A DNA stretch of 64,000 nucleotides. Source: Syntrophomonadaceae bacterium. Its GTDB lineage: Bacteria; Bacillota; Dethiobacteria; DTU022; UBA8154. Where the stretch lies: NCBI GenBank assembly GCA_003563385.1, contig PWRZ01000181.1:3146-67145 (forward strand), given 5' to 3'. A model generated the notes under the pieces. That model did not search any database. It was given only the letters and a program-made list of their open reading frames with translations, and was not told where the DNA came from. Below are positions 547-64,000 of the stretch, in pieces (the stretch's first letter is position 1; every line of letters begins with the position of its first letter). The translations under genes and the position numbers were made by a program.

Positions 547-795
547 AATGAATCTCCCAGTATTATTTATAAAAGCAGCGGTTCGGTTTGTGTCGTTTAG
601 ATAAATTATTTGTCAAAAATAAGCTGTTTTGCTTACTAATTCTACAAATGCCTGCGGTATCCTTTCTTATCTTGAATACGAAGAAGGAAATGGGGCAGGA
701 GAGTTGAAATAATTATGGTGAACCATTTTTTTTTTTGCAGCGCTTTTTACTTTAAGGGCCTTCTTTGAAAGGGCCTTTATTGAGGTGATATAGGC

Positions 796-1212: not shown

Positions 1213-1287
1213 GCGGCCATACGGCGGGCAGGTTTTAAAATACTGGGGAGAAAGCATATCACAGGCACTGTAACAGGGGGTATTCTT

Positions 1288-2388: not shown

Positions 2389-2592
2389 AACCTTAAGAGG
2401 GCCTGGTAATAACGCATCACTGCCAGGCTCAGTTTTCCTTGCTATACTTTTCAAATATAGCGATGCCGAAGAAGAGAATGAGTTGAATGGAATTCAAAAA
2501 AAGTAGAGACAATGTACCGTTGTTAACCGTTCTGTGGTTATACCGGCGCCCTTCGGCTGCCGGCAGCTTCAATTCCAGTTGAGCGAGCGGGG

Positions 2593-2913
2593 GTGGCCGG
2601 AATGAAAGTGATTAGAAAAGATGACTGTACGGTCGTTGTAATCCTCGAAAAAACAATGGATATCCTTAACTCGTCCCAGTTAAAAGAAAGCCTCAAAAAG
2701 CTCTACGAGGAAGGGGTCAGCGAAATAAAGGTTGATTTTAGCAATACCAGTTATATTGACGGGACCTGCCTTGGCAAGCTGCTCATGTTCCAGGGGATGC
2801 TCAAAAAGAGGCACGGCTCGCTGAGCATAATAAATGTACAGAGCGAGTACCTGCGCAGCTTGTTTGAGATGATTAACATTGACAGGGTCATTGATGTTGA
2901 TTACAAGAAATAA
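2593..2913 (+). CDS. STAS domain protein (anti-sigma factor antagonist, SpoIIAA/RsbV-like)
   Basis: 106 aa with the conserved STAS core (..VDFSNTSYIDGTCLGKLL..). No partner anti-sigma kinase is adjacent. Confidence 0.75.
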   Translation: MAGMKVIRKDDCTVVVILEKTMDILNSSQLKESLKKLYEEGVSEIKVDFSNTSYIDGTCLGKLLMFQGMLKKRHGSLSIINVQSEYLRSLFEMINIDRVIDVDYKK

Positions 2914-4851: not shown

Positions 4852-5018
4852 GGGGTTATCACCTCTTCGGCATTATTGACGGGAAGTCCAAAAGGGCAAC
4901 ACTTTTCAACAGCCCACAATAAAGGTATAATCTCCTAAAAGAGCACCTCTTTTTCCTAAATAGAGCAGTTCTATATTATATATTAAAATTCCTCTTTACG
5001 TCGGGGGGCTTATGAAAT

Positions 5019-5471
5019 ATGGTTTATGTGGGTGTAATCGGTTCGGGATCATGCAGTCCCCGGGAGGGGCTTCTGGCCTACGAAGTAGGGGCGGAGATTG
5101 CCCGCAGGGGAGCACTGCTGGTTTGCGGGGGATTGGGAGGCGTTATGGAGCAGGCCTGCCGGGGATGCATGGAGGCGGGAGGTGTAACCCTGGGCATACT
5201 GCCGGGGACGAGGCGAAAAGAGGCCAACCCTTACGTCAGCTATGCCCTCACTACCGGTATGGGCGAGATGCGTAATTTTTTGGTGGTGCGCTGCAGTGAT
5301 GTGTTGATTGCCGTGACCGGCGGTTACGGTACCCTATCGGAGACGTCTATTGCCCTTAAGGAAGGGAAAAAAGTTGTTGCCCTGCAGTTTCCCTTTGCCC
5401 TGCCCGATACACTGAGGGCCGGTTCGCCTGTAGAGGCCGTGGAAATGGCCCTTAAGGGACAGGAGAGATGA
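5019..5471 (+). CDS. TIGR00725 / LOG-like Rossmann-fold protein
   Basis: VGVIGSG...GGLGGVMEQ...AVTGGYGTLSE pattern of the LOG/TIGR00725 family. Confidence 0.65.
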   Translation: MVYVGVIGSGSCSPREGLLAYEVGAEIARRGALLVCGGLGGVMEQACRGCMEAGGVTLGILPGTRRKEANPYVSYALTTGMGEMRNFLVVRCSDVLIAVTGGYGTLSETSIALKEGKKVVALQFPFALPDTLRAGSPVEAVEMALKGQER

Positions 5472-5516
5472 GAGATATTTTGATACGGGAAGGAGGAGAT
5501 AGCCCTGGAACCGGAA

Positions 5517-6182
5517 ATGATTATGGCGGGTGTTTACCTGGTTGGCGGCCCCGGCCTTTCCGCCCCGGAGGACTGCAACGTTTATCTGCTGGAAAACGAG
5601 GGAGAGCTGCTGATGATCGATTGCGGCTGCGGGCTATCGGTGGAGAGGATTTTTTTGAACATGGAGAAATTGTGGCTTTCTCCCGGTGATATAGGCACTT
5701 TAATACTGACGCATGCCCACGTCGACCACGGGGGAGGGGCGGCCGAAATAGTATCAAGGGTCGGCGCCCGGGTTATCGCCCATCGCGGTGATGTTGATGC
5801 CCTGGAAGGAAGGGACATTGTTAAAACTGCTGCCGGGCTGTACGGTATTGACTATAAACCGGTGCGCGTAGACCGGGTTGTTGACGGAGAAAAGGAAACA
5901 GTCAACCTGGGCCGGCAGGAGCTGCAACTGCTGCACACGCCCGGTCACACACAGGGGAGCATCGTTGTCTGGGGAGATTTCCCCGGGGGCAGGGTCCTGT
6001 TCGGCCAGGATATACACGGCCCTATTAACCCTTCATGGGGCTCTGACTGGGACCAGTGGCAGGCTTCGTTGAAAAAACTGCTGCAGCTGAAAGCCGATTA
6101 CCTGGGGGAAGGTCATTACGGTATTATTTGTCCCGCCCAGAAAGTGCAGCGCTTCATAGCCGATTTTATTGACGAAGAATGA
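5517..6182 (+). CDS. MBL-fold metallo-hydrolase
   Basis: HAHVDHGGG (HxHxDH) zinc-binding motif and a later LLHTPGHT motif. Confidence 0.8.
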   Translation: MIMAGVYLVGGPGLSAPEDCNVYLLENEGELLMIDCGCGLSVERIFLNMEKLWLSPGDIGTLILTHAHVDHGGGAAEIVSRVGARVIAHRGDVDALEGRDIVKTAAGLYGIDYKPVRVDRVVDGEKETVNLGRQELQLLHTPGHTQGSIVVWGDFPGGRVLFGQDIHGPINPSWGSDWDQWQASLKKLLQLKADYLGEGHYGIICPAQKVQRFIADFIDEE

Positions 6183-6202
6183 CGCTGAATAGATGATAAA
6201 TA

Positions 6203-6233
6203 AAACCCGCTTCCAGGTAGGAAGAAGCGGGCC
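6203..6233. terminator. Bidirectional stem-loop terminator between convergent genes
   Basis: CCCGCTTCC...GGAAGAAGCGGG stem (~8-9 bp). A T-rich tract follows on the - strand side (TTTTATTTAT), serving the cotF-like gene; the + side is weaker. Confidence 0.45.
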
Positions 6234-6297
6234 GCTTTAGGAATTTAGGAACTTTTTGATCGAGACAGGCTGCAGCTCTGTCTGCGCGGGGGACGCC

Positions 6298-6540
6298 TCA
6301 GCGCTGCGGCTGCATTTCGTCCAGGATCATGGGCACTTTGTACCAGCCTTTCTTATTCATGACCTCGAAAATATCCTGGTGGTCCCTCAGGCACTGGTCG
6401 TGGAAGTCTGTGAATGTTTGACGCAGGTTCTGGTCCTGTGATTCGAGGATCGCCATCATGTATCCATGTGCCATCTGCTTGGCACCTGTTAACACGTCGC
6501 CGGCAATGTCTTTGTCGGTAAGTTGATGATGATGGGGCAT
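6298..6540 (-). CDS. Spore coat protein, CotF-like (Coat_F domain)
   Basis: 80 aa, helical, His/Gln-rich, with the CotF-like pattern ..AHGYMMAILES...NLRQTFTDFHDQ... Confidence 0.6.
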   Translation of the reverse strand: MPHHHQLTDKDIAGDVLTGAKQMAHGYMMAILESQDQNLRQTFTDFHDQCLRDHQDIFEVMNKKGWYKVPMILDEMQPQR

Positions 6541-6597
6541 TTTCTGGCCTCCTTGCTTGTTAGTTCAGGTCGCTGTTTTGCTGTTTGGATAGGGTGC

Positions 6598-6831
6598 CTA
6601 TGAAAGCAGGTGACCGCCCCCGGCTTCCTGTAAAATTGAGGAAAGGCGGTTTGCCCTCTCCTGGCACTGGCTGCCCATCTGGCTGATCAGGCTTTTCATG
6701 GAAGGGTCTTGAACCTGGTTGGCGTAGGCATTGAGCTTTTTGGCACACAGTGATTCGCCCTGGTACTGGTGAAAGAGGGACATAAACTCCGCTTTGCCAA
6801 TGTTCTTTATACCTGTTCTCGCGGTTTGCAT
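6598..6831 (-). CDS. Spore coat protein, CotF-like (paralogue of the preceding gene)
   Basis: 77 aa with a similar pattern (..LNAYANQVQDPSMKSLISQMGSQCQERANRL..). It is tandem with 6298..6540. Confidence 0.55.
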   Translation of the reverse strand: MQTARTGIKNIGKAEFMSLFHQYQGESLCAKKLNAYANQVQDPSMKSLISQMGSQCQERANRLSSILQEAGGGHLLS

Positions 6832-7044
6832 TGCCTGCCTCCTTTCTTAAATGTTTCATTTTAGGTTATCCATAAGAAAATTAACTATGCAGTGCAAAAA
6901 AAGGTAAGAAATGCGTAGCTGAGCGGCACCACCATTCACGGGTGGTGACAGTATAAATGTGCCGGGGCATTATGGCGGGCGGTTGTCCTGCTCTAACTGG
7001 CAGGAGAGCTTACTACTTACTGTTAAAAAAAAGAGGTGATCTGG

Positions 7045-8007
7045 ATGTTCGAGCTGGCAGACAGGTTTAGCGGTGCCCTTTTGGGCACGCATGTCGGGGA
7101 TGCGCTGGGAATGCCTGTAGAGGGATATTCACCGCATTATATCCGCAGCAGCTTCGGCGAGGTAAGAGAGATGCTCGAAGCGCGGCTGGGAGCGGGTACC
7201 TATACCGACGATACGGAGATGATGATCGCGGTGGCGGAAAGCCTGGTCAGAAAAAGGGGCTTTGACGGTGAAGATATGGCGCAGTCGTTCCTGGAAAATT
7301 TTGACCCCCGCAGGGGTTACGGTGCCGGAACCGTAAGCGCGCTGAAGCTGATTCGCTCCGGCGTAAGATGGGACCTGGCGGGAAGCAGAGTGTTTGAAGG
7401 CGGTTCGTACGGTAACGGTTCGGCAATGCGCATTGCACCTGTCGGCTGCCTTTATCACCATGACCTGCAGAAGCTTAAAGAGGTTGCTTTTGCTTCCAGC
7501 TCAATTACCCATGCCCACAGCCACGGGAAAGAAGGGGCTGCCCTGCAGGCCTGTGCGGTTGCCCTTGCAGTGAGATCCGGGCCGGGCCGGGGCCTGGATG
7601 TAAAAGAATACCTCGCTGCCATAAAACAGTTTCTGGATCCCGGCTCGGTGTACCGAGCGAAGCTGCAGCTGGTCGAGGAGCTGCTGCAGGGGAAAGCCCC
7701 CTTTGATGAGGTTGTCCAGGAGCTGGGACACGACAGCAGGGCCCTTTATTCCGTTCCCACGGCCATATACTCATTTTTACGCCATCACGAAGACTTTGAA
7801 GAGGCCCTTGTCTATGCCGTGGGGCTGGGAGGGGATACCGACACCATTGCGGCCATGGCCGGGGCCATTGCCGGGGGCTATCACGGTAAAAAGGCCATAC
7901 CGGTGCGCTGGCTGCAGGCCCTCGAAAGGGGTCCCAAAGGGGCAAATTATATTGAGGAGCTTGCCTTGAAGCTGTGCCGGCTGCACAGGGAGATTGTTTC
8001 TCCGTAG
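7045..8007 (+). CDS. ADP-ribosylglycohydrolase family protein (DraG/ARH-like)
   Basis: GALLGTHVGDALGMPVEG, TDDTEM and C-terminal GGDTDTIAAMAGAIAG motifs. AGAGGTGA Shine-Dalgarno 6 nt before the ATG at 7045. Confidence 0.8.
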   Translation: MFELADRFSGALLGTHVGDALGMPVEGYSPHYIRSSFGEVREMLEARLGAGTYTDDTEMMIAVAESLVRKRGFDGEDMAQSFLENFDPRRGYGAGTVSALKLIRSGVRWDLAGSRVFEGGSYGNGSAMRIAPVGCLYHHDLQKLKEVAFASSSITHAHSHGKEGAALQACAVALAVRSGPGRGLDVKEYLAAIKQFLDPGSVYRAKLQLVEELLQGKAPFDEVVQELGHDSRALYSVPTAIYSFLRHHEDFEEALVYAVGLGGDTDTIAAMAGAIAGGYHGKKAIPVRWLQALERGPKGANYIEELALKLCRLHREIVSP

Positions 8008-52722: not shown

Positions 52723-54447
52723 TTGAGAAGAAAAAACAAAAGAAAAAACAGTAAGGATAAGGACAGCCTTCTTGTTATACCCTTGGGAGGAATAGGGGAA
52801 ATAGGGAAAAATATGTTTGTTGTTCAGTTCGGTGAAGAGATAGTAGTACTGGATGCCGGTCTTAAGTTTCCAGAAGAGGAAATGCTGGGGGTTGACATAG
52901 TTATCCCGGACCTGGGCTACCTCCTGGAGAATAAGAAAAAAATAAAGGCAATTATATTAACTCACGGCCACGAAGATCACATTGGAGCTATCCCTTATGT
53001 GCTCGGTGAAGTCAATGTACCCATTTACGGTACGAGATTGACACTGGGGCTTTTAAAGCGGAAGCTGGAGGAATTTGGGCTGCTGGATGGTGCTTCCCTC
53101 AATGAAATCAGTCCCGGCAAGGAACTGCAGCTTGAACGCATAAAGGCGGCATTTTTTGCCACCAACCACAGCATACCTGATTCCGTAGGTGTGGTTCTTT
53201 ATACCCCCGCAGGCAATATTGTTTACACCAGCGATTTCAAGTTTGACTATACACCGGTAATGGGAAGAACTACTGACTTACACGCTATTGCAGACGTGGG
53301 CAAAGAAGGGGTGCTTGTTGCTCTATCCGACAGCACAAATGCCGAGCAGCCCGGTTTCACGCATTCCGAAATAGAAGTAGGGGATACACTGAACAACATT
53401 TTTTCTTCCGCTGAAGGAAGGATAGTTACAGTAACATTTGCTTCCAACGTGCACCGCATCCAGCAGATCGTCAATGCCACCAGTTTTGCCGGAAGAAAGC
53501 TGGCCGTGGACGGGAGAAGCATGGTCAATGTTGTTGAGATTGCACAGGAGCTCGGTTACCTGCATATTCCTCCCGGTCTTCTTATCGATGTGGATGAGGT
53601 CAATAAATGCCCCCGTGAAAATGTTGTTATTCTAACAACGGGAACACAGGGAGAGCCGCTCTCTGCTTTAACCAGGCTTGCCAATGCGAATCATAAGAAA
53701 TTTGAGATTATACCCGGTGATACAGTTGTAATAGCGGCAACGCCTATTCCCGGGAATGAAAAACTGGTATCCCGAACCATTGACAATCTCTTCAAAAGAG
53801 GTGCTGAAGTAATTTACGAGGCTGTATCAGGGGTCCATGTTTCCGGCCATGCCAGCCAGGAAGAGCTCAAGCTGATGCTGAACCTTTTACGGCCCCGTTA
53901 CCTGATACCGGTTCACGGCGAATACAGGCACCTCATACATCATGCCAACCTTGCAGAGAAAGTGGGCCTGAGAAAAGAAAACGTTTTTATTGTTGAAAAC
54001 GGCACTGTTATGGAATTTACAGCCGAACGCGGCAGTGTTGTAGGATCGGTACAGGCAGAAGGGGTAATGGTCGACGGCCTGGGCATCGGTGATGTTGGCA
54101 GTATAGTCCTGAAAGACCGGCAGCTCTTATCGCGCGACGGGATTTTCATAGTGGTGGTTACCATAGACAGCAGTGAAAACAAAATTGTCAGCGGTCCCGA
54201 TATTGTTTCCAGGGGTTTCGTATACGTTAAGGAGTCGGAGGAGTTAATGGAACAGGCCCGGGAAAAAATTGCCTGGGCATTGGAAGAAATGCTAGATAAG
54301 AAAATAAGTGAATGGACAGCTATAAAAAACAGTATCAAAGATTGTACCGGCAAGTTCCTGTGGGAAAAAACAGGACGGAGGCCGATGATACTGCCAATAA
54401 TAATGGAGGTGCGTACGGCAAAGACAGCACAACAGCCTGCCAGGTAG
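52723..54447 (+). CDS. rnj: Ribonuclease J
   Basis: Beta-lactamase/beta-CASP fold with ILTHGHEDHIGA. ~570 aa. Synteny matches dapA-ymfA(rnjB) in Bacillus. A TTGCTC-17-TATAAT promoter lies at ~52633-52661. Confidence 0.85.
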   Translation: MRRKNKRKNSKDKDSLLVIPLGGIGEIGKNMFVVQFGEEIVVLDAGLKFPEEEMLGVDIVIPDLGYLLENKKKIKAIILTHGHEDHIGAIPYVLGEVNVPIYGTRLTLGLLKRKLEEFGLLDGASLNEISPGKELQLERIKAAFFATNHSIPDSVGVVLYTPAGNIVYTSDFKFDYTPVMGRTTDLHAIADVGKEGVLVALSDSTNAEQPGFTHSEIEVGDTLNNIFSSAEGRIVTVTFASNVHRIQQIVNATSFAGRKLAVDGRSMVNVVEIAQELGYLHIPPGLLIDVDEVNKCPRENVVILTTGTQGEPLSALTRLANANHKKFEIIPGDTVVIAATPIPGNEKLVSRTIDNLFKRGAEVIYEAVSGVHVSGHASQEELKLMLNLLRPRYLIPVHGEYRHLIHHANLAEKVGLRKENVFIVENGTVMEFTAERGSVVGSVQAEGVMVDGLGIGDVGSIVLKDRQLLSRDGIFIVVVTIDSSENKIVSGPDIVSRGFVYVKESEELMEQAREKIAWALEEMLDKKISEWTAIKNSIKDCTGKFLWEKTGRRPMILPIIMEVRTAKTAQQPAR

Positions 54448-54488
54448 CAGGCTGTTGTTCCGTTGAAGGGTGTTAGGCGGACCCGGAA

Positions 54489-54779
54489 TTAACCGGAATT
54501 TAATTTCTCATATATTTCCTCTGTTAACTGGGCCCGGCTTTTGCCTTCTACATCAAGGCCCATGCTGGCCGCCGATGCAGCGAGCAGCTCAAAAGGGTAG
54601 CCCCGCAAGGTAGAGAAGGAACCTTTTCTGATTGTTTCCATAAGCTGCTTATTTTGCTCATCATTTTCTTCTTCGAATTCTACCAGGGGTAGCTCATGAT
54701 CAGCCCTATGGAGAAGTTGCCGTGAAGGGTCTGCGTTAGAGGCTGCCACCAGGGGTAAGCAGCCGTATACTCCTGCCAC
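54489..54779 (-). CDS. Hypothetical protein with a C-terminal Rho_N/SAP-like helix-hairpin. It may be the C-terminal part of a frameshifted gene together with 54680..55147
   Basis: ..FELLAASAASMGLDVEGKSRAQLTEEIYEKLN resembles the Rho_N motif (L..LR..A..LGI.G.S.M.K.ELI..I). It overlaps the upstream - strand ORF in another frame. Confidence 0.3.
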   Translation of the reverse strand: MAGVYGCLPLVAASNADPSRQLLHRADHELPLVEFEEENDEQNKQLMETIRKGSFSTLRGYPFELLAASAASMGLDVEGKSRAQLTEEIYEKLNSG

Positions 54780-55147
54780 GGTAGGTACAGTACCCCGAAG
54801 TGCGGGTGGATAAAGATTGCAAAAGCAATTACTGCCAGCATGGCGGAGAAGGCAATTACTGAAAAGCCCTGTGCCGGCTGTGACTGTTCTCTCCAGGGGC
54901 GGTGCTCAAAGGCGTTTTTAAACACCAGGCTCATGATCAGCACGAGCACGAAGAAAGAGACAATGGCCAGGGCTGATTGTTCCCGTGCAATAACACCCCC
55001 GATTCCCTGAAAGACCAGGATCTGCTCCCCCCTGACGCGCAGTATGATGGGGACGTCAAGGGTAAAGCTGGCGCACCCGGGGAAGAGCTTGTGTATTTCC
55101 CCCGGTTCGTGTTCCACCAGGTTGCCCCTGTAACCCGATTTTTCCAT
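54680..55147 (-). CDS. Hypothetical small membrane protein (2-3 TM). Only the part from the internal Met ~55147 is credible
   Basis: Hydrophobic segments ..ALAIVSFFVLVLIMSLVF.. and ..FSVIAFSAMLAVIAFAIFI.. The upstream part of the ORF-track call (to 55408) is antisense to the sigma-54 activator remnant. Confidence 0.3.
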   Translation of the reverse strand: MEKSGYRGNLVEHEPGEIHKLFPGCASFTLDVPIILRVRGEQILVFQGIGGVIAREQSALAIVSFFVLVLIMSLVFKNAFEHRPWREQSQPAQGFSVIAFSAMLAVIAFAIFIHPHFGVLYLPWQEYTAAYPWWQPLTQTLHGNFSIGLIMSYPW

Positions 55148-55169
55148 CAGCTCGTACCCTTCGGGATAG

Positions 55170-55571
55170 AAGGTAGAAGGTATATACATCGGTATTTTCA
55201 AGCAGCAGAAACTCGATATTTCCAGTGAAGCGCTGGACATTTTAATGCAGTATGATTTCCCGGGCAATGTAAGGGAGCTAAAAAATATTATCGAGCATGC
55301 TTTTATTAAGTCCGACAGCCTGATCATTGAAAAGTGCGACCTGCCTCCTTTTGTGCTGAAGGGCTGCAGGAGCAGTACCGCTAACGTTGATGTTGATAAG
55401 GAGGTCAAGGGCGGGCATCCTGCACTGAAGGAAGTATCCAGGGAAAAAGAAATTGATTATATACTCAGGGTGATAGAAGAGTGTCGCGGCAACAAGAGCA
55501 AGGCTTCCAGGATACTGGGAATATCCCGCAAAACCCTTTATAACAAGCTGGGAGAGAGACTTAAGAATTAA
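55170..55571 (+). pseudogene. C-terminal remnant of a sigma-54-dependent transcriptional activator (end of the AAA+ domain plus Fis-type HTH). It has no start codon and no N-terminal domains
   Basis: The in-frame reading ..KQQKLDISSEALDILMQYDFPGNVRELKNIIEHAF... holds the PGNVREL signature, and ..ILRVIEECRGNKSKASRILGISRKTLYNKL.. is the HTH_8 domain. The frame is closed by a stop at 55167 with no initiation codon in between. Confidence 0.6.
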
Positions 55572-55583
55572 TATCGTCCAAAG

Positions 55584-55656
55584 TTGACAAGTGACAAGGG
55601 GTGACAAGGGGACGGGGTTGACAGTTGGTTGACAAGGGGACGGGGTACTTGTCAAC
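55584..55656 (+). repeat. Copy 1 of a locus-specific motif array: TTGACAA / GTGACAAGGGG / TGACAAGGGGACGGGG / TTGACAG / TTGACAAGGGGACGGGGTACTTGTCAA
   Basis: Directly repeated TGACAAGGGG(ACGGGG) units end in the inverted repeat TGACAAG-N11-CTTGTCA. It starts 13 nt after the stop of the sigma-54 activator remnant. Confidence 0.8.
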
Positions 55657-55669
55657 CTCGAGGGCGCAG

Positions 55670-55758
55670 ATACACTGCCCGGAACATGTTCATTTACGCT
55701 TTTCAGGGCTGCCAGGTATTAAACTTTAAATACCGGGCAGCCCCTGTTTTTTTCCATA
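55670..55758 (+). ncRNA. Candidate small RNA / leader transcript ending at a strong intrinsic terminator
   Basis: A possible TTGTCA-16-TACACT promoter lies inside the repeat. The putative transcript contains the perfect palindrome GAACATGTTC, then a 14-bp stem GGGCTGCCAGGTAT..ATACCGGGCAGCCC followed by CTGTTTTTTT (~55706-55758). No ORF is present. Confidence 0.35.
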
Positions 55759-56011
55759 ATAAAAAAAATAATTTCATGATGCCTGAACAAAGCAGGCTGG
55801 TCCTGCAACATAGAAAGTAGAAAACTGATAACGGCTGCTGCTACATGCGGAGCAGGAAAGGGATGCCAATTCGAAGAATAGTTAAATTATGTTTCCATGT
55901 TCAAATTGTTCAATTTATAATCCTGCTTTCATAATCCTGTTACAGGTCAATAAAGTAGAGGGGTGGTGTGTCTTTAAGGTGTACCTATTAAGTTAAAAGG
56001 AGGCTTCCAGT

Positions 56012-57616
56012 ATGTACTGCGGTAAATGTGGAACAAGTATTGAAGAGGGATATTATTATTGCCCGGACTGCGGTGCCCCCGTGGAAGAACCGGTTCGGCC
56101 CGGTTCCGAGATCAGGCAGCGTAAGATTGCACCCAGGTTAAAATATATACTGCCGGGGTTGGCGGCCCTGGTGGCGGCGGTGATTGTGGGGGTAACCTAT
56201 TTATCTTCACCTTTTATTGATGTTCCCGGTGACTACTCCACTATCCAGGAAGCAATTGATGCTGCCGAAGATGGTGATACCATAGTGGTGGAACCGGGCA
56301 CCTACAGCGAGAACATTGATTTTAAAGGTAAAAACATCACCCTGCGCAGCACCGACCCCGATGACACTGAAGTGGTAAATAATACCATCATTGACGGAGG
56401 GGGCAGCGGTTCCGTGGTCACCTTCCGCAGCGCAGAAAGCGAAGAAGCTGTATTGTCGGGTTTTACCATCACGGGTGGGAGCGGTACCTGGGAGGAGGCC
56501 GAGCTTATGTACCAGGGAGAACTGAGGGAAGTGGAAGGTTATGTTGGCGGCGGCATCCTGGTTATATACGGAAGTTCACCGCTGATCGAGAAAAATGTCA
56601 TAGAAGGAAATACTTCCAAACATGGCGCCGGCATTGGCATTTATCACCAATCTTCCCCCAGCCTGCTGCACAACACCATTGTGAACAACATATCCGGAAG
56701 CGCCGGGGCCGGGGTACATATCTCTCTAAAGTCGTCTCCCGTCATACAGGAGAATACCATAGCTAACAACGAGGCCAAAGCCGGTGCTGGGGGGATAGCT
56801 GCCATTAATGGCTCTTCCCCTCTTATTAAGGGAAATATCATTACCGATAACATCGCCGAGGGTGCGGGTGGCGGCATTTTTGTTTTTCTGTCCTCGCCTG
56901 ATATAGAGGGTAACACCATTGCCGAAAATGTGGCGGTGGAAGACGGCAGCGGCGGGGGAATATCTATTGTATTCGAATCTTCCCCTCGTATAGAAGGCAA
57001 CACCATTACGGGTAATACGGCAGATAAAGAAGGAGGCGGGATATATATTGAGCGTGGGTCCTCCCCCACCATTGCAGGAAACACCTTCACCGATAACTAC
57101 GCGTTTCACGCCGGTGGCGGGATAGCCGTTTGGTATAATTCTTATCCCCGTATAGAAGGCAACACCGTCTCTGATAACCAAGCATTAGTTGGCGGTGGCA
57201 TATTTGTTGCCTATGAGTCTTACCCCGAGATTACCGGCAACACCATTTCTGATAACACCACCGATGTCGGCGGTGGCGGTATATTCGTTTGGGAGAATTC
57301 TTCCCCCCATATAGAAGGCAACACCGTCACCGGAAACGAAACAGCTGGTATTGGTGGCGGCATAGTAGTTGACGAAGATTCTTCCCCCCGCATAGACGGC
57401 AACATTATTTCTACCAACGCTGCCGATACGAACGGTGGGGGGATTTTTGTTGGCCCTGGATCTTCCCCTGCCATTGCGGGCAATACCTTCGAGGAAAACC
57501 GGGCCGGTATGGAGGGCGGGGCCATCTGGTTAAGTGGCGACTCCAGCCCCCTTTTAAACGACCCTATCGACAATACTTACAGTGGCAACAAGCCCGGTGA
57601 CGTCTACCGGCAGTAG
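56012..57616 (+). CDS. Zinc-ribbon / single-TM / right-handed parallel beta-helix repeat protein (gene A of the zinc-ribbon cluster)
   Basis: N-terminal CGKCG...CPDCG double CxxC, a TM (LKYILPGLAALVAAVIVGVTYL), then ~12 imperfect 22-aa repeats of type SSPxIEGNTIxxNxAxxxGGGIxV (PbH1/NosD-like). Confidence 0.8.
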   Translation: MYCGKCGTSIEEGYYYCPDCGAPVEEPVRPGSEIRQRKIAPRLKYILPGLAALVAAVIVGVTYLSSPFIDVPGDYSTIQEAIDAAEDGDTIVVEPGTYSENIDFKGKNITLRSTDPDDTEVVNNTIIDGGGSGSVVTFRSAESEEAVLSGFTITGGSGTWEEAELMYQGELREVEGYVGGGILVIYGSSPLIEKNVIEGNTSKHGAGIGIYHQSSPSLLHNTIVNNISGSAGAGVHISLKSSPVIQENTIANNEAKAGAGGIAAINGSSPLIKGNIITDNIAEGAGGGIFVFLSSPDIEGNTIAENVAVEDGSGGGISIVFESSPRIEGNTITGNTADKEGGGIYIERGSSPTIAGNTFTDNYAFHAGGGIAVWYNSYPRIEGNTVSDNQALVGGGIFVAYESYPEITGNTISDNTTDVGGGGIFVWENSSPHIEGNTVTGNETAGIGGGIVVDEDSSPRIDGNIISTNAADTNGGGIFVGPGSSPAIAGNTFEENRAGMEGGAIWLSGDSSPLLNDPIDNTYSGNKPGDVYRQ

Positions 57617-57639
57617 GCAGTGTCAGGCACCGGAAAAAG

Positions 57640-57670
57640 CAGCAGTTCCAGGTTGGGCCGGAGGGGCCGG
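57640..57670 (+). terminator. Rho-independent terminator after gene A
   Basis: GGCCGG-agggg-CCGGCC stem followed by TGTGTTTTT. Confidence 0.5.
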
Positions 57671-57704
57671 CCTGTGTTTTTAACAATTAACTGGAGGTGG
57701 TCAA

Positions 57705-58691
57705 GTGATGATGAAATGCAGTTCTTGCGGCGCGGACCTGGTTGAAGGATCAAAGTTTTGCATTATCTGCGGGCTAAAATTGAACGAAATAGTAGAAGAA
57801 GAGAGCGATAAGGAAAAGGAAGGACTGCCGTCAAATGAAGAAACAAAAGAAGCAGTTTGCCATTCCTGCAAAGCACCGCTGAGAAAGGAAGCACTGTTTT
57901 GTGTTTCTTGCGGAGCCAAAGCAGGTGAACCGCAGGAGAAGCCGGCTGATCCCGCCCTGACGCTGCCTCAAGAGGAAGAAAAGGCGGGAGAAAAAGTTTG
58001 TCCTTCGTGCAATGGTGCTTTGAAAAGGTCGGCCAACTTTTGTGTTCACTGCGGCACCCCTGTATATCAAACAGAGGATGAAATTGCCGATGCTCTTTCA
58101 ACGGCAGAAAAGAAAGAGCAATCTGAACCGGCTGTTACGGCTGGTGAGGAGAGGCAGGAAGAAGGTGCAGCTGAATGTGCGGCGGATTACGGTTTGCTTG
58201 AAGAGGTGAGCAGCCAGGAAAAAGTACTCGAAGAGGTAAACAATCACGAAAGAGTACCGGAGCTTGATCCAGTTTCCACCTCTACCGGTGATTACAGGAG
58301 TGGCCAACAGGAGCCGCTTAAAAACTGGGAGGTTACTGCAGGCGAGGAGCAGGACAGGCAGGCTGATAGCCTTGATATAATCCCGTTCAGCAAAGGGGTT
58401 GTTTCGCGGATCACTTTTCGTGAATCACCACAGGCCCCAAAAGTGGTTGTCAGGGGTAAGATCAAATGCCACGGATGCCGGAAGCAGACCCTGTTTACAA
58501 TTACGTCGCAACGGGGATGGGGGGGTGCCAATGACCCTGTAACCTGTCCCTGCGGAAACGATATTGTAATCGGTGAATACTGGAAAGAGAGCATCGATGC
58601 CATCTTTGTTTGGGCTTCTCTGGAGCCCCCTGATGAATCTTACCGGCACTGTCCTCTGTCAATCTTTATAAACAGTGTCACCGCAGAATAA
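57705..58691 (+). CDS. Soluble multi-zinc-ribbon protein (three tandem CxxC-N11-CxxC ribbons plus a C-terminal Cys4 domain). Gene B
   Basis: CSSCG..CIICG, CHSCK..CVSCG, CPSCN..CVHCG; an acidic linker; a C-terminal ..CHGC...CPCG.. No TM segment. Confidence 0.7.
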   Translation: MMMKCSSCGADLVEGSKFCIICGLKLNEIVEEESDKEKEGLPSNEETKEAVCHSCKAPLRKEALFCVSCGAKAGEPQEKPADPALTLPQEEEKAGEKVCPSCNGALKRSANFCVHCGTPVYQTEDEIADALSTAEKKEQSEPAVTAGEERQEEGAAECAADYGLLEEVSSQEKVLEEVNNHERVPELDPVSTSTGDYRSGQQEPLKNWEVTAGEEQDRQADSLDIIPFSKGVVSRITFRESPQAPKVVVRGKIKCHGCRKQTLFTITSQRGWGGANDPVTCPCGNDIVIGEYWKESIDAIFVWASLEPPDESYRHCPLSIFINSVTAE

Positions 58692-58816
58692 AACCACCAA
58701 AAGCAAATGACTTCTGTAATACAGGGGGCGGGTTGAATCTCCAATAGTAACGTCAGCAGGGAATGCTGCATCACTATAATTACTTTAATTGGGAAATTGG
58801 GAGGCTGAAGCGTGCC

Positions 58817-59119
58817 ATGTTTTGCACAAACTGTGGGTTCAATAATGAAGATGAGCATAAATTTTGTATGAAGTGCGGCTTCAAACTGCGCGAAGCGGCC
58901 GCCGTTCCACATACGGCGCCACCGGATGTGCTGCCTGGGCAGCCCAGTGGACAGCACGCTGCCGCAGTCCCTTCGAGAAGATGGCTGTTGTGGATTGCCG
59001 CTCCTTTAGTGTGCCTTCTGGTACTGGTTATTGTTTTTCTTACGCTGCCTGAAAAAGATGTCGATATTGTCATCATACAGAATGCGGGAGAGACAGCCGG
59101 CAGTTTTGATATTTGTTAA
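58817..59119 (+). CDS. Zinc-ribbon / single-TM small membrane protein (gene C)
   Basis: MFCTNCG...CMKCG, then a TM (LLWIAAPLVCLLVLVIVFL) and a short extracellular tail. GGGAGG Shine-Dalgarno 12 nt before ATG 58817. Confidence 0.6.
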   Translation: MFCTNCGFNNEDEHKFCMKCGFKLREAAAVPHTAPPDVLPGQPSGQHAAAVPSRRWLLWIAAPLVCLLVLVIVFLTLPEKDVDIVIIQNAGETAGSFDIC

Positions 59120-59174
59120 AGTCGCTGGCCGCATGCCGGCCGTAGAGAAGTAGATTATAAGGGAGAGGAATGTA

Positions 59175-59972
59175 ATGTACTGTATAAGTTGCGGCAGGAA
59201 AGCCGTAGATAACTCCCAGTATTGCAGTGAGTGTAAGCCTGTTGGGGGACCTTTTACCTCCAGCCTTGATAGGGGGCAGGAATTAAACAGCCGTTTCTTT
59301 CTAATATCCCTATCGGCGGGCTTATCAGTTGTTTATCTGGCTATTGCGGGCATGGGCATGGATGTATCCGTTGCCTACGGCGAAGAGACAGCTTTATTTA
59401 CTTTTTTTTCCTTTGTATTTATATTAACCATTACCTTTCTAGTCGTAGTGAAGCTGGTATTTATTTATAAGACATGGGCTTTAATACAGGACGGTTACGC
59501 CCGCACAACACCCGGTAAAGCTGTCGGCTTTTTATTTATCCCCTTTTTTAACCTTTACTGGGTATTCCAGGCCGTGTGGGGTTTTTCCAGGGATTACAAC
59601 AGCTTTATTTACCGCCATTCCGTTAACACTCCCCGGCTGCCGGAGAAGTTATTCCTCGCTTATGCGATCGTTAATACAGCTGTCCTGATCCCCGCTGCCG
59701 GATGGGTGATTGTTTTACTGGTGAACCCGCTCTTATTTATCGTCATGGCATTTAAAATATGTGAGACGGTCAGCATTGCATCTGCCGGCACGGTGCCGGC
59801 GGCGGACCGGCACGCTGTTGGTGCTCCACGACGGTCATTTTTTGCATTTCTTCCCTGGCCGCGCATTGAAAGCTTAATAAAAAAGGCCGCTTTACGCGAT
59901 TGCAGGCGTTTTGGTAGTATTAGCGGTCCTGGCTGTTGCCTTTTTGATTCCCCGGCCCCGGTTTTCCGTTGA
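59175..59972 (+). CDS. Zinc-ribbon polytopic membrane protein (gene D). It is probably fused in vivo, or ancestrally, to the downstream CARDB gene through a -1 shift in an A6 run
   Basis: CISCG...CSEC ribbon, then 4-5 TM helices. The last ~60 aa of the called ORF are low complexity and overlap gene E in another frame. Confidence 0.6.
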   Translation: MYCISCGRKAVDNSQYCSECKPVGGPFTSSLDRGQELNSRFFLISLSAGLSVVYLAIAGMGMDVSVAYGEETALFTFFSFVFILTITFLVVVKLVFIYKTWALIQDGYARTTPGKAVGFLFIPFFNLYWVFQAVWGFSRDYNSFIYRHSVNTPRLPEKLFLAYAIVNTAVLIPAAGWVIVLLVNPLLFIVMAFKICETVSIASAGTVPAADRHAVGAPRRSFFAFLPWPRIESLIKKAALRDCRRFGSISGPGCCLFDSPAPVFR

Positions 59973-60894
59973 AGCTTTGACGGTCCCCGAGCAGGTTATT
60001 GCCGGGGATAATTTCACTGTTGCAGTTATAGTGGAAAATACAGGCAGAGCAGAGGGCACGCGGACCCTTTCTTTAACCATAAACGAAGAGGAATATTTGG
60101 AGAAAGAAGTTTCTGTGGGAGCCGGCTCTGAAGAGACTGTACAGTTCGAAATTGAAGGGATTTTACCCGTCGGGGTGAACCAGGTTGCCCTGGAAGAGCT
60201 GGCCGGCGAGGTGAGGGTATTAAAACCGGCCCAGTTTGAATTGAGTAACTTTAGCCTTGGCCCGAACACTCTGCGGACCGGCGAACAAACGGAGCTGGCC
60301 GTGGACCTCAGCAACCTGGGCGAGGTCGAGGGCAGCTATACCCTCTCTCTGACAATCGACGGGGAAGTAGAGCAGACAAAAGAAGTTACCCTGGCCGGTG
60401 AATCGTCGACCAGGGTGTTTTTTCCCATTATAAAAAATAAACCCGGCAAATATGCGGTGGCTTTAAATGGCTTCAGCGAAACCCTCGAAGTTTGGCAGAT
60501 CGAACGCCCGGCCAACGGGACTGTCTTAATTAACGATCTTAAAGGCGGTCACGGGCATCTCAGGATATATAACGGCGACGAGCGCGATGCCGTGGTGGTG
60601 CTGTCATCACCTTCCAACCCCCAAAAGGCACTTTTGCAGGTTTATGTGCGCAGTAAAAGCAGGCATACTGTTACGGGAATTAAAAACGGTACTTACCTGA
60701 TCTATTTTTCGACCGGTGAAGATTGGGACAGCTACTCCAGTAGATTTACAAAGAGTCCTTATTACCAAAAGTTTGAGGAGAGGGCCTTATACACGGAGGT
60801 ATACCCCCGCTATAATATAATCTCCATTGAATTTAGCGTTGCAGAAGGTGCTGCCATAACGGAACGGGTTCCAGAGGACCAATTCCCCAACTGA
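59911..60894 (+). CDS. Extracellular protein with two CARDB-like Ig-fold domains and a C-terminal beta-rich domain (gene E)
   Basis: ..VPEQVIAGDNFTVAVIVENTGRAEGTRTLSLTINEEE.. and ..LSNFSLGPNTLRTGEQTELAVDLSNLGEVEGSYTLSLTIDGE.. match the CARDB pattern. N-terminal hydrophobic segment. TTG start. Confidence 0.65.
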   Translation: MVVLAVLAVAFLIPRPRFSVEALTVPEQVIAGDNFTVAVIVENTGRAEGTRTLSLTINEEEYLEKEVSVGAGSEETVQFEIEGILPVGVNQVALEELAGEVRVLKPAQFELSNFSLGPNTLRTGEQTELAVDLSNLGEVEGSYTLSLTIDGEVEQTKEVTLAGESSTRVFFPIIKNKPGKYAVALNGFSETLEVWQIERPANGTVLINDLKGGHGHLRIYNGDERDAVVVLSSPSNPQKALLQVYVRSKSRHTVTGIKNGTYLIYFSTGEDWDSYSSRFTKSPYYQKFEERALYTEVYPRYNIISIEFSVAEGAAITERVPEDQFPN

Positions 60895-61014
60895 AAGCGA
60901 TCGATATTGAAAATTAACATTTTCCACCTTTCCAATAAAATGTCCCCCGCTTGCAACTATAAGATAACTGATTCAAAACTAGACACCATTTGTGCTTTAA
61001 AAGGAGAGATACTT

Positions 61015-61692
61015 ATGTTTGAAAGCGAACCGATGAATCCCCAGCTTAAAGCTTTTTTGCGGCGCGGCCTTACACTGCTTATTTCACTTGTTATCCTGGC
61101 TTTTATCCACGCCATTGCCGCCCGACTGCCGGGAGCGGGACTGTACGTACTGCCTGGATACGGTATCATAGCTGCCGACCTGATCTCGGCGGTTATTGCG
61201 GTAGTCGCCATAATGCTGGTATGGCGTTTTGCCCGTGAGACTGGCCCATGGGTTGCGAAAGCTGTGCCCTGGCTGCCGGAGGCGGATTCCCTAATGAAAA
61301 GCGCCGTGCAGTTAATTATCGTGGTGATAGCATACACTGCCTTCATCAGTCTTATCATACCGTTCCTGGCACGTATTGGCCTTGTCTGGGTATATTATGC
61401 CGTTTTTCTGGGCCTGGGCGCTTATCCTCTATACAACGTGGCCCGCATCCTCCTGGTGAATGCAGACCGGATCGCCGCACTCATTACGGGGGACAAAGAA
61501 GGTGCCGGGGGGGCAGATCCTGCTAAAAGAGGCACCGGCGGCAATGATACTCTACCCGGGCACCCGGGAGAAGCAATGAATAGAGCCCCTGAAAGCGGGA
61601 GGTCGAATAACTGCCCCCAATGTGGTTCTGTTTTACTGCCGGAGGGCCGGTTTTGCCCGGGGTGCGGGCGAGAAAAAAAAGCTTCAAGCTGA
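61015..61692 (+). CDS. Polytopic membrane protein with a C-terminal zinc ribbon (gene F)
   Basis: Four predicted TM helices, then a G/P-rich linker and CPQCG...CPGCG at the C-terminus. AAGGAG Shine-Dalgarno 9 nt before ATG 61015. Confidence 0.65.
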   Translation: MFESEPMNPQLKAFLRRGLTLLISLVILAFIHAIAARLPGAGLYVLPGYGIIAADLISAVIAVVAIMLVWRFARETGPWVAKAVPWLPEADSLMKSAVQLIIVVIAYTAFISLIIPFLARIGLVWVYYAVFLGLGAYPLYNVARILLVNADRIAALITGDKEGAGGADPAKRGTGGNDTLPGHPGEAMNRAPESGRSNNCPQCGSVLLPEGRFCPGCGREKKASS

Positions 61693-61957
61693 ACTTGAAC
61701 ACTACAGCAGCCCGATTGCTTGAAGTACAGCTTCCTAATTAAAGTGAAAGGGCGGTGAAGTAAGGTGCAAGCTCTGGCTATGGAATATCCTCTATTATTT
61801 TGGGCACTTATCGGTTTAGTTGTTTGGAGAGTAATTAAGTCAATGTAGAGCTTCTTTCCCTATCGGTTCTATCACGATAGACTCAATAAAAGAGGCTGAC
61901 CCGGCGATGTAATAATAGAGGGATTTTGATCGGCGCGCTCTGCCGGAGGCAGTACCT

Positions 61958-62320
61958 ATGAATATCTTTGAAACGACGGCTGATTATACAACTTGTCCTG
62001 CAAATCTTGCGGTATACGTGGACTATATCCTGCAGGGAACCCATTTTTCTGGTCGGGAAGAGATAGAAGATCACCTGGCCTGCTGCCCTAAGTGCGCTAG
62101 TGAATATGCCGGCCTGCTGGGCATGGCCCTTGGAAACATGATCTATCCTCTTCTTGACCTGGTCCTGGATGTAGAAGCGGGGGCGGTAGACCTGGATTTA
62201 TTAATTGAATATAACCGCCACTGGTTTGAGATATGCACCCTCCTGGAAGAGAATGCCGGGGCCGCCGCGGCCCTGTCACACATAGGGTTACTTCAGAGCT
62301 TAGATAGTTGCCTGGGTTGA
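61958..62320 (+). CDS. zf-HC2 (putative anti-sigma factor zinc-finger) protein, gene G. It has no TM and no adjacent sigma factor
   Basis: ..CPANLAVYVDYILQGTHFSGREEIEDHLACCPKCASEYAGL.. matches the PF13490-type pattern (C..L..YlDgeL.....v..HL..C..C..e). Its stop codon is the TGA of the first TTGACA of motif copy 2. Confidence 0.55.
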   Translation: MNIFETTADYTTCPANLAVYVDYILQGTHFSGREEIEDHLACCPKCASEYAGLLGMALGNMIYPLLDLVLDVEAGAVDLDLLIEYNRHWFEICTLLEENAGAAAALSHIGLLQSLDSCLG

Positions 62321-62357
62321 CAAGGGGACGGTTGACAAGGGGACGGGGTACTTGTCA
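62317..62357 (+). repeat. Copy 2 of the motif: TTGACAAGGGGACGG-TTGACAAGGGGACGGGGTACTTGTCA
   Basis: Two direct units followed by the inverted repeat TGACAAG-N11-CTTGTCA. It ends ~32 nt before the ATG of gene H. Confidence 0.8.
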
Positions 62358-62389
62358 CCCTTAGTTAAATAATGCGGGAGGTGCGAAAG

Positions 62390-63319
62390 ATGGCCTTTTG
62401 TAGTCGTTGTGGCAACAAATTTGAGGAAGAAGGGAAATTTTGTGCGGAATGCGGTGAACCTCGCAGTGAGGCTAAACCGGATTTGCCGCAAGGGAACAAG
62501 AGTGAACGCAAACCTGCAGTGAAATTCGTGGTAGTTATTTTTACTTTATTAGTATTAACCGGTGTGGCAGTAGCAGTTGTCTCCTTTATGAATGGTGATG
62601 ATGTTGAGGTGGCGGCAGATAAAGCTCAGAACGATATGTATGAATTTGAAAATGAGCTCGAGGTTGTGGAAGATATAGCCACAGATGATATGTACGAAGA
62701 CGAGGTTGAGGGTGCAGTAGATACAGTCCCGGAGGAAGTGCAAGAAGATGAAGTAGAGGTTACGGCAGAAAGAACCCCGCACAATTGGCAGAGTTTTCAG
62801 GGCCCTGGATTCGCGTTATCGCTCCCCCCCGGATGGGAGGGAGGTACTGAGGAAGAGATGGATGCAATCATCGAGGAATTAAGATTGTTAGGGCCGGAGG
62901 GAGAAAAGCTTGCCCAGGAGATAGATTTTTACAAGCAATACTTACTCTTTTGGGCGTACGATGCTGGAAGTTTGCATCCGGAGCAATTACTGGTAAATGT
63001 GAACCTGGTCTCGGAAAATGCCAATATTTCTCTTGAAGAGTACATGAAGGCTAGCTATGAAGAATTAAAACAGATGTACGAATCGTGGGGCTACCAGGAA
63101 AAAATTATTGAACAAGGTGTTGTTTCCCTGGGGCAGAACGAGAGAGTGGCCAGGACTATTTTTGAGCAGGAAATATTTGGTGAACATACCATATGTGCCC
63201 AATATATAATAAAAAAGGGTAATACATTTTATCTTCTCACTTTTTCTGCAGAAAGCAACAAATTCAATCAATACAAGGAGACCTTTGACCAGGTTGCCGG
63301 CACCTTAAAAATAATTTAA
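62390..63319 (+). CDS. Zinc-ribbon / single-TM / extracellular sensor-like (PsbP/DUF1795-like) protein (gene H)
   Basis: MAFCSRCG...CAECG, a TM (VKFVVVIFTLLVLTGVAVAVVSF), an acidic linker, and a ~180-aa C-terminal alpha/beta domain. GGGAGGTG Shine-Dalgarno 6 nt before the ATG. Confidence 0.7.
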   Translation: MAFCSRCGNKFEEEGKFCAECGEPRSEAKPDLPQGNKSERKPAVKFVVVIFTLLVLTGVAVAVVSFMNGDDVEVAADKAQNDMYEFENELEVVEDIATDDMYEDEVEGAVDTVPEEVQEDEVEVTAERTPHNWQSFQGPGFALSLPPGWEGGTEEEMDAIIEELRLLGPEGEKLAQEIDFYKQYLLFWAYDAGSLHPEQLLVNVNLVSENANISLEEYMKASYEELKQMYESWGYQEKIIEQGVVSLGQNERVARTIFEQEIFGEHTICAQYIIKKGNTFYLLTFSAESNKFNQYKETFDQVAGTLKII

Positions 63320-63353
63320 ATTAATCTATGTTAAATTCAGCTGCCTGCTAAGG

Positions 63354-63384
63354 GTGACAAGGAAGTTGACAAGGGGGACGGGTA
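63354..63384 (+). repeat. Copy 3 (degenerate) of the motif: GTGACAAGG-aag-TTGACAAGGGGGACGGGTA. It lacks the CTTGTCA right arm
   Basis: Same orientation as copies 1 and 2. It lies ~35 nt after the gene H stop. Confidence 0.7.
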
Positions 63385-63662
63385 ATCAGTGCTTTATCTG
63401 GATCCCATGGAACTGATTGAGAGCGTCTTTTGTCCCTAGCAGACTGTGTGAAAACACTTACCAAAATTACACATTGAGCATGGTGGTCCGATTTCATAAA
63501 GAAATAATCGTCCGGGGAAGAATATCGATGAAGAATCTGGTAGTGCTGACGGCACAGATACGTCATAGACCTAGACATGGGCACCAACCGGTCTTTGCCA
63601 AACTTGCTGTTCTTCACTTCCAGAGATTTTATGGGAAACGATTACGAGTGATATGCCGAATC

Positions 63663-64000
63663 TTAAAAAATATTGTTTCGGCCTTCCAGTAGCAGGACAG
63701 CTTCTTGCGGTAAATGGGGTTTAATCCTGGCCAATATGTACCTTTCCGGGCTTCCCGGCGCCAGCCCCAGGAATGTGGCAAAATCCGCAAATGCCGCCTT
63801 AATATTTCCACTGTAGGTCAAGGCCAAACCCCGGTAATAGTAGAGTTCCTTAACTTCCGGCGAAAAGTTTATACTCCTGTCCAGCATTTCGATAGCCTGA
63901 TCATATTTGCCCAGTAAAAGAAACGCCCGGCCCGCGGAAAGATCATGTCCTATTGGATATCTATCGGGAGGAACAGTGGCTTTCCGGTAGTATTCTGCGG
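63663..64000 (-). CDS. TPR-repeat protein, C-terminal part (the gene continues beyond the window end)
   Basis: - strand reading ..EYYRKATVPPDRYPIGHDLSAGRAFLLGKYDQAIEMLDRSINFSPEVKELYYYRGLALTYSGNIKAAFADF.. shows TPR consensus positions. It is open at position 64000. Confidence 0.5.
   Translation of the reverse strand, partial: AEYYRKATVPPDRYPIGHDLSAGRAFLLLGKYDQAIEMLDRSINFSPEVKELYYYRGLALTYSGNIKAAFADFATFLGLAPGSPERYILARIKPHLPQEAVLLLEGRNNIF

Follow-up and report, generated by a model that had tools for sequence, protein, structure and literature searches.

Proteins in which a zinc ribbon (ZnR) inside the cell is joined through a transmembrane segment (TM) to a variable ectodomain, together with the idea that they act as sensors, were published in 2012-2013 (PMC3355149, PMC3924330). 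In these YARHG and NTF2-like (DUF4878/DUF3828) proteins, which are confined to Gram-positive organisms, one or two PF13240/PF12773 ribbons lie inside, followed by one TM and a variable ligand-binding domain outside, and membrane-tethered signal transduction was hypothesised by the Pfam curators (PMC3355149, PMC3924330). In Lactococcus lactis, the N-terminal CX2CX10CX2C motif of Llmg_0524 and Llmg_0526, both encoded in one operon, binds zinc stably; Llmg_0524 without the motif gives growth and lysozyme phenotypes, and Llmg_0526 resembles TcaA of Staphylococcus aureus (PMC4628341). In Bacillus subtilis, the membrane protein SamG (YdjG) carries a zinc ribbon, and the cytosolic SPFH protein SamI (YdjI) has a low-complexity region and a C-terminal zinc finger but no membrane anchor; the association of SamI with the membrane depends on SamG/SamH, the stress signalling of which it restrains (10.64898/2026.02.06.704340). 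Here, a cluster of zinc-ribbon genes at positions 56012-63319 of a 64,000-nucleotide stretch of Syntrophomonadaceae contig PWRZ01000181.1 (hereafter the window) is described and compared with these systems.

The cluster comprises seven genes on the same (+) strand, called as eight open reading frames (ORFs), all of which are present downstream of rnj where an initial annotation of this DNA had placed them. That annotation regarded the eight as one set. However, since related loci contain no relatives of genes A, F and G beyond ribbon-only matches, H is an orphan, and one related locus (L111) keeps only C and DE without B, the conserved core is instead gene B plus ribbon-tagged membrane genes, and the pair C-DE. 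Our best guess is therefore that the cluster represents a lineage-specific set of ribbon-tagged envelope proteins around a conserved partnership. Its features are listed below, with likely starts taken from independent gene calls on a Joint Genome Institute (JGI) metagenome contig (3300000362, SL_1KL_011_SED) and a Logan assembly.

56012-57616 (+): gene A, 534 aa; N-terminal CX2C-X10-CX2C ribbon (residues 3-20), one TM (~45-66) and a right-handed parallel beta-helix ectodomain of ~460 aa
57654-57674 (+): terminator-like GC hairpin and T-run between A and B, from a consensus scan alone; possibly a partial transcription stop, with no evidence of function
57708-58691 (+): gene B, 327 aa, soluble; three ribbons on disordered linkers and a C-terminal Zn-site beta-sandwich domain
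58817-59119 (+): gene C, 100 aa; ribbon, one TM (~56-78) and a short tail
59175-60894 (+): gene DE, present as two ORFs, D (59175-59972) and E (59911-60894); ribbon followed by a polytopic membrane domain resembling DUF4328, a TM, a pair of CARDB domains and one further beta-sandwich
59878-59883 (+): A6 run, at which reading must pass from the D frame to the E frame by a +1 shift
61015-61692 (+): gene F, 225 aa; ribbon at the C-terminus (residues 200-217), preceded by about four hydrophobic segments
61958-62320 (+): gene G, 120 aa; short and soluble, containing a motif of the ZAS type, and separated from gene F upstream by a 266-nt gap
62390-63319 (+): gene H, 309 aa; ribbon, TM (45-67), acidic linker and an ectodomain of ~175 aa

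When all ORFs of at least 90 aa in the window were scanned for the motif CxxC-x(5-25)-CxxC, it was found in A, B (three times), C, D, F and H, the only other occurrence being in a spurious antisense ORF at 27602. This gives eight ribbons in 7.3 kb versus none in real genes across the other 56 kb. The CX2C-X10-CX2C spacing is identical in all of the cluster ribbons. Zinc-ribbon folds had been proposed throughout the cluster, and at the level of sequence this assignment is firm for A, B and C, which score 25.3, 51.0 (over three stretches) and 30.9 bits, respectively, against the 25-bit gathering cut-off of Pfam Zn_Ribbon_1 (PF13240). Membership of D, F and H is predicted from the motif alone: all three have the exact spacing, but score under the cut-off at 14.9, 17.5 and 13.9 bits. 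Gene F, described previously as polytopic with a C-terminal ribbon, has the hydrophobic segments and the exact motif, but falls below the Pfam cut-offs for DZR, Zn_ribbon_3 and Zn_Ribbon_1 alike.

In A, C and H the motif lies at residues 3-21 and is followed by one hydrophobic segment, with K/R residues before it and D/E residues after; gene A, for example, has four K/R ahead of the TM and five D/E after it, and gene C has RR at the membrane edge. Gene B has no hydrophobic segment. Hydropathy and charge bias thus point to the ribbons lying on the K/R-rich, cytoplasmic side of their anchors. Since D and E are one gene, a ribbon stands beside a membrane anchor in five of seven genes (A, C, DE, F and H), and not in six of eight proteins as counted initially. 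The N-terminal ribbon-TM-extracytoplasmic layout of the TcaA/Llmg_0526 kind, with topology predicted from hydropathy, is seen in A, C and H, bearing out the ribbon-TM arrangement proposed for C, and the more general architecture of cytoplasmic ribbon, TM and variable ectodomain is indeed a recurring one, as noted at the outset.

In this respect the proteins resemble those with ZnR-TM-YARHG and ZnR-TM-NTF2 architecture, which likewise have the ribbon inside, a TM and a variable outside domain. The ectodomains encoded here are different, however, and the published examples are single proteins as opposed to arrays or proteins with a soluble partner. Similarly, Llmg_0524/0526 and TcaA, the phenotypes of which concern cell-wall integrity and glycopeptides, share the motif spacing and the N-in single-pass layout, but differ in their ectodomains, and no soluble multi-ribbon partner has been described for the L. 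lactis operon. None of the window proteins is an orthologue of TcaA, the best scores against NCBIfam NF053815 (teico_TcaA, cut-off 550 bits) being 17.8 bits for C and 12.4 bits for B.

Gene B is soluble and carries three tandem ribbons, as had been claimed, at residues 4-21, 51-68 and 98-115, each a separate Zn_Ribbon_1 stretch, on disordered linkers that are acidic and Lys-rich. The further Cys4 site that had been noted falls within a confidently folded C-terminal domain (~200-327) with an invariant C254-H255-x-C257 ... C280-P281-C282 pattern, which is predicted to be a Zn-site beta-sandwich and is unclassified. The third ribbon (residues 76-124) is an insertion unique to the window copy, all other members of the family having two. 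The family is rare. A word-indexed search with B returned eight relatives among 5.8 billion proteins, and an exhaustive HMMER search with a profile of the C-domain returned 27 proteins at E < 1e-3 among 1.84 billion representatives, 11 of which (E < 1e-30) share the B architecture. When the B alignment was run against 185,579 species-representative genomes, only generic ribbon matches to B residues 1-155 were obtained, with no copy of the C-domain. A few of the 27 proteins (P0029-P0044) are distant, stand-alone versions of the C-domain (CHGC...CxxCG beta-sandwich), 126-190 aa in length and lacking ribbons; some of these have other Cys-rich tails attached, and they fall outside all Pfam families.

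Gene B was followed across 12 lineages, namely the window, L003/L044, L007, L009, L039, L040, L041, L042, L043, L112, L114 and L117. A ribbon-bearing membrane gene directly adjoins B in every one of them, in keeping with the idea of a dedicated soluble multi-ribbon partner put forward in the initial annotation, and in seven of the ten lineages that have upstream sequence a DE-type gene lies directly upstream of B. This adjacency between B and ribbon-bearing membrane genes persists even where B identity has fallen to 30-40%. The ectodomains or membrane domains of the other partners vary, and include OpuAC (L007), Peripla_BP_6/ANF_receptor (L114 and L040), DUF5050, DUF6273 with a ConA-like domain, and DUF805. 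Genomic context varies also, with housekeeping genes as neighbours in L003 and L007, and flanking insertion sequence (IS) genes in L117. The only regulators near B anywhere are a LuxR-type two-component pair ~4 kb away in L009 and an FHA-kinase ~6 kb away in L041. The latter locus presents a different, signalling-flavoured context, in which the products encoded upstream of the B homologue (690-7803) are a protein combining FHA, Cys4 and Ser/Thr kinase parts, an 829-aa protein resembling Hsp70, and a TPR-LysM protein.

No description of soluble multi-ribbon proteins together with ZnR-TM arrays was found in the literature, and the B family and its neighbourhood appear to be undescribed. The original statement that this is not a described system therefore stands for B and its surroundings, but not for the ZnR-TM architecture or the sensor idea, which are published, nor for the SamG/SamI type of pairing, which has been studied. 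Indeed, the SamGHI layout is the closest studied parallel. As in the PspA-SamGHI (YdjGHI) system, an anchorless cytosolic protein with a zinc module is encoded beside a ribbon-bearing membrane protein, an arrangement seen for B in 12 of 12 lineages. Unlike SamGHI, B has several partners, which have large ectodomains, and there is no pspA nearby (the gene calls for L001 and L010 include no PspA gene). GpsB-type cytosolic adaptors, which bind the cytoplasmic mini-domains of several cell-wall enzymes (PMC6335420), are comparable in concept only to what is proposed for B, namely a single cytosolic protein that docks the short cytoplasmic tails of several membrane proteins; there is no relation in sequence or fold.

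D and E had been annotated as two genes, probably fused, that together encode a ribbon, a polytopic membrane region and two CARDB domains. The fusion and the CARDB domains are upheld, but the two are a single gene, since relatives encode intact fusions of 501-618 aa. The E portion matches CARDB (PF07705) at 37.3 bits, above the cut-off, in agreement with an Ig-like fold. When the intact L111 protein was used as a tblastn query, the D-frame match stopped at 59837 and the E-frame match began at 59884, with E-frame stops (TAATAA) at 59875-59880. A 1-nt insertion (A5 to A6) in the A6 run at 59878-59883 is the simplest explanation. All three assemblies (the window, the JGI contig and the Logan contig) carry this run unchanged, and elsewhere they differ by one to four single-nucleotide polymorphisms. 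Programmed -1 frameshifting at an A_AAA_AAG heptamer in D was rejected as an alternative, since it would lead into the wrong frame and reach a stop after 12 codons, whereas E requires a +1 shift. The membrane domain of D scores 22.0 bits against DUF4328 (cut-off 27.2), and a TIR-fused paralogue in L044 scores 17.3 bits, the two results agreeing but being sub-threshold; no mention of DUF4328 was found in the literature.

The closest relative of DE is that of L111 (53-62% identity), where a C homologue (52% identical) lies directly upstream of an intact DE gene and the remnant of an M48-TPR gene is found nearby. In L044, a gene at 805-1797 (-), convergent with the B gene, encodes a TIR_2 domain (7.6e-21) fused to a D-like (DUF4328-like) membrane domain, indicating that this membrane module has been swapped between ribbon and TIR cytoplasmic heads.

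The remaining genes appear to be local. Apart from matches to the ribbon only, relatives of A, F and G are missing from all B and DE loci, and a word-indexed search with H among 5.8e9 proteins recovered only H itself. Gene A is as originally described, a ribbon-TM-beta-helix protein, the ectodomain matching Pfam Beta_helix (6.6e-54) and NosD (1.4e-26), with TIGR03804 repeats in six stretches. The ribbon motif and TM of H likewise hold, but the PsbP-like sensor domain that had been assigned to it derives from one sub-threshold match (14.7 bits versus a cut-off of 23.5, E 0.032) covering only the last 45 profile positions, and the assignment is weak.

The wider distribution of ribbon genes was examined in 56 loci of at least 8 kb fetched for one double-ribbon protein, of which 41 contain at least two ribbon ORFs and 24 at least three. 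A layout in which a soluble multi-ribbon protein is encoded beside one to five ZnR-TM genes is recurrent in Clostridia (L012, L017, L032, L045, L068 and L093). After removal of near-duplicates, the density of ribbon ORFs within 3 kb of the seed gene was 2.1 times that further out (0.146 versus 0.070 per kb, Poisson P ~8e-5); the density within the window cluster, at 0.8 per kb, is extreme. Locus L013 encodes a soluble SPFH/Band_7_1 protein with four ribbons, which is SamI-like. Arrays of five to eight ribbon genes were observed in other Clostridia and metagenome contigs (L045 1975-7054, L068 562-8106, L093 1053-7323, L012 and L017). Those of L012, L017 and L045 are led by a gene whose soluble product combines a helical region at the N-terminus (MAFF...) with two to four C-terminal ribbons, and these lead proteins may constitute a second family of soluble partners.

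The reading that is favoured here, albeit tentatively, treats the ribbons as cytoplasmic docking tags and gives B the part of a soluble adaptor or regulator in envelope organisation or envelope stress. Ribbons on the cytoplasmic side would act as zinc-stabilised docking tags, and B, as a multivalent cytosolic adaptor or brake, would be recruited to, or would bridge, the tagged membrane proteins, DE foremost, much as SamI is recruited via SamG and SamH. By analogy with Llmg_0524, TcaA and SamGHI, the function would lie in cell-envelope organisation or the handling of envelope stress, as opposed to the control of a sigma factor, and A, F, G and H would be local additions on the ribbon theme, not fixed components. 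No enzymatic domain was detected in the ectodomains of the cluster, which look like binding or scaffold domains, namely a beta-helix, two CARDB domains with a beta-sandwich and, perhaps, one that is PsbP-like.

What is shown is the composition, the adjacency and the rarity; any physical interaction between B and the ribbons is a prediction. A number of observations weigh against the docking-tag proposal. In the window itself B is not adjacent to DE, and as DE is frameshifted there, the presumed main partner of B may be inactive. Locus L111 has no B within its 13.5 kb, and its C-DE pair therefore indicates that DE has no strict need for an adjacent B. Unlike SamI, B has no Band_7 match, and hence no SPFH domain, and shows no detectable homology to SamI beyond the type of ribbon; because the window lacks pspA as well, the cluster is not a member of the SamGHI system but at most an analogue of it. 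The authors of the L. lactis study favoured a role for the zinc module in protein stability, and mentioned interaction with other proteins only as a possibility (PMC4628341). Finally, the loci of the wider survey were picked by similarity to the ribbons of B and thus form a biased sample, and the enrichment of ribbon genes near one another is modest.

The main rival explanation, which seems unlikely on balance, is that the genes form no functional unit at all. Independent surface or envelope proteins would have piled up in a variable region, the N-terminal ribbon being no more than a fast-folding, zinc-stabilised cap that fixes the N-in topology or stabilises the anchor. B itself would be a further ribbon protein, brought next to the others as gene starts that encode ribbons were duplicated and shuffled. 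Such a decaying collection of surface proteins specific to the lineage would be consistent with the lack of relatives of A, F and G in related loci and the orphan status of H, with the broken DE gene, with the gene remnants that flank the cluster (part of a sigma-54 activator at 55245-55571 and, at 54489-55408, minus-strand ORFs that appear to be split), with the differing genomic contexts of B loci, including the IS genes around that of L117, and with the conclusion from L. lactis that the zinc module chiefly serves stability (PMC4628341). It does not readily accommodate the adjacency of B and ribbon-membrane genes that is kept at 30-40% B identity over 12 lineages, with the order DE-B in seven of them. 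Moreover, a topology cap leaves a soluble protein with two or three ribbons unexplained, and the ribbon of F is C-terminal.

More improbable is the proposal that the cluster is a sensing array, in which the ribbon takes the place of the anti-sigma domain and ligand binding on the outside alters contacts with B and G on the inside, thereby controlling a sigma factor or other transcription factor encoded elsewhere. Such a proposal would be in line with the classic ligand-binding ectodomains of some B-adjacent partners (OpuAC in L007, Peripla_BP_6/ANF_receptor in L114 and L040), with the same suggestion having been made by the Pfam curators for ZnR-TM-YARHG and ZnR-TM-NTF2 proteins (PMC3355149, PMC3924330), and with the description of SamGH as a stress-signalling module that is restrained by SamI (10.64898/2026.02.06.704340). 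Gene G, which had been called a zf-HC2 anti-sigma-like protein, also has a bearing here. Its translation contains the complete ZAS pattern (C13-x25-H39-x3-C43-x2-C46), corresponding to the C/H-x23-26-H-x3-C-x2-C motif of the ZAS anti-sigma factors RsrA and RslA (zf-HC2), and its weak matches all fall on anti-sigma factors. Nevertheless, it is sub-threshold for every family (zf-HC2, E 0.011, 16.3 versus 22.2 bits; RsrA TIGR03988, E 0.019, 15.0 versus 62.5 bits; an anti-sigma model, 13.6 versus 100 bits), and a comparison with RslA in the PDB (3hug_B) gave an E value of 0.21 with the alignment over the motif, so that the ZAS assignment, too, is weak.

Unlike the genes for ZAS factors, G has no adjacent gene for an extracytoplasmic function (ECF) sigma factor, or for any member of the sigma-70 family, and it is absent from all related loci, and thus not conserved with the cluster. 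The CX2C-X10-CX2C ribbons, for their part, are a different zinc module from that of ZAS proteins. No sigma domain is present in the called genes from rnj to 4.4 kb past the end of the window, no sigma factor is encoded in any related locus, and no kinase occurs within the cluster in any locus, and the lack of both that was reported originally holds for the window and for 4.4 kb beyond it. Similarly, neither a sigma factor gene nor a DNA-binding output gene is found in the window or in the 4.4 kb that follow it, or beside B at any locus, none of the eight proteins matches RsgI_N at E up to 0.1, and the beta-helix of A and the CARDB domains of E resemble adhesion or scaffold domains rather than sensor domains. 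In the absence of a sigma factor gene from every locus, the analogy with anti-sigma/RsgI-type sensors that the initial annotation had drawn is unsupported.

A conflict or anti-phage module, with the D-like membrane domain as effector and the ribbons or B as sensors, is very improbable: the TIR_2 fusion (7.6e-21) that is convergent with B in L044, and the TIR and RyR genes upstream of C-DE in L111, would be in keeping with it, but PADLOC and PHROGs were uninformative, the PHROG matches spanning the ribbon only, no similarity to plasmid or phage DNA was found, and housekeeping genes are the neighbours in L003 and L007.

An extension of the docking-tag proposal, which is speculative and improbable as it stands, would make the CX2C-X10-CX2C ribbon an address tag used generally on the cytoplasmic side of envelope proteins in Gram-positive organisms. 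The tag would be read by dedicated soluble multi-ribbon proteins, among them the B family, the coiled-coil-plus-ribbon proteins of L012, L017 and L045, and SamI-like SPFH-plus-ribbon proteins, with the Zn beta-sandwich of B as a new output or oligomerisation domain. If that were true, the window would be one instance of an unrecognised but widespread coupling of many ectodomains to a shared cytoplasmic hub. Clostridia and Bacilli commonly encode single-TM proteins that carry the annotation 'zinc-ribbon domain-containing'. Such proteins were frequent in the Clostridia loci examined here, and very few of them have a known function. A ribbon that serves as a docking tag for soluble multi-ribbon partners would therefore provide a handle on a large class of envelope proteins, tied to the envelope phenotypes of SamGHI, TcaA and Llmg_0524. 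A ribbon that is only a stabilising cap would, on the other hand, reduce the cluster to an ordinary group of surface proteins specific to the lineage. Either way, the anti-sigma reading is unfit for use in annotation.

With regard to the surroundings of the cluster, dpaA/dpaB and rnj (52723-54447) lie upstream, from which the host would appear to be an endospore-forming Firmicute. Judging from the sample name of the JGI contig, the source is presumably soda-lake sediment. Base composition offers no contrast that would mark the cluster as an island, G+C being 0.46-0.52 within it versus 0.46-0.55 elsewhere, and an island origin on this basis was rejected. Promoter and terminator scans returned background levels of matches (14 versus 11.3, and 15 versus 11.9, respectively), and no Rfam match was obtained in window positions 54000-64000 at E up to 0.1. 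Judging by the gaps between genes, A, B-C-DE-F and G-H may be the transcription units.

Two overlapping ORFs on the minus strand at 54489-55408 (called as 50 and 169 aa on the JGI contig), which have hydrophobic stretches and no Pfam match, look like one membrane-protein gene split by a frame change. The 108-aa ORF at 55245-55571 (+) corresponds to only the C-terminal end (AAA_lid_14 and HTH_8) of a sigma-54-dependent activator, and is a gene remnant at the point where the conserved block meets the accessory cluster. A hairpin at 55706-55743, with 18-bp arms followed by a T-run, resembles the terminator of this remnant. Between the two, at 55583-55660, five copies of (G)TTGACAAG(GGG), direct and inverted and with no Rfam match, are found within 80 bp, and these could be an operator or the remnant of a repeat.

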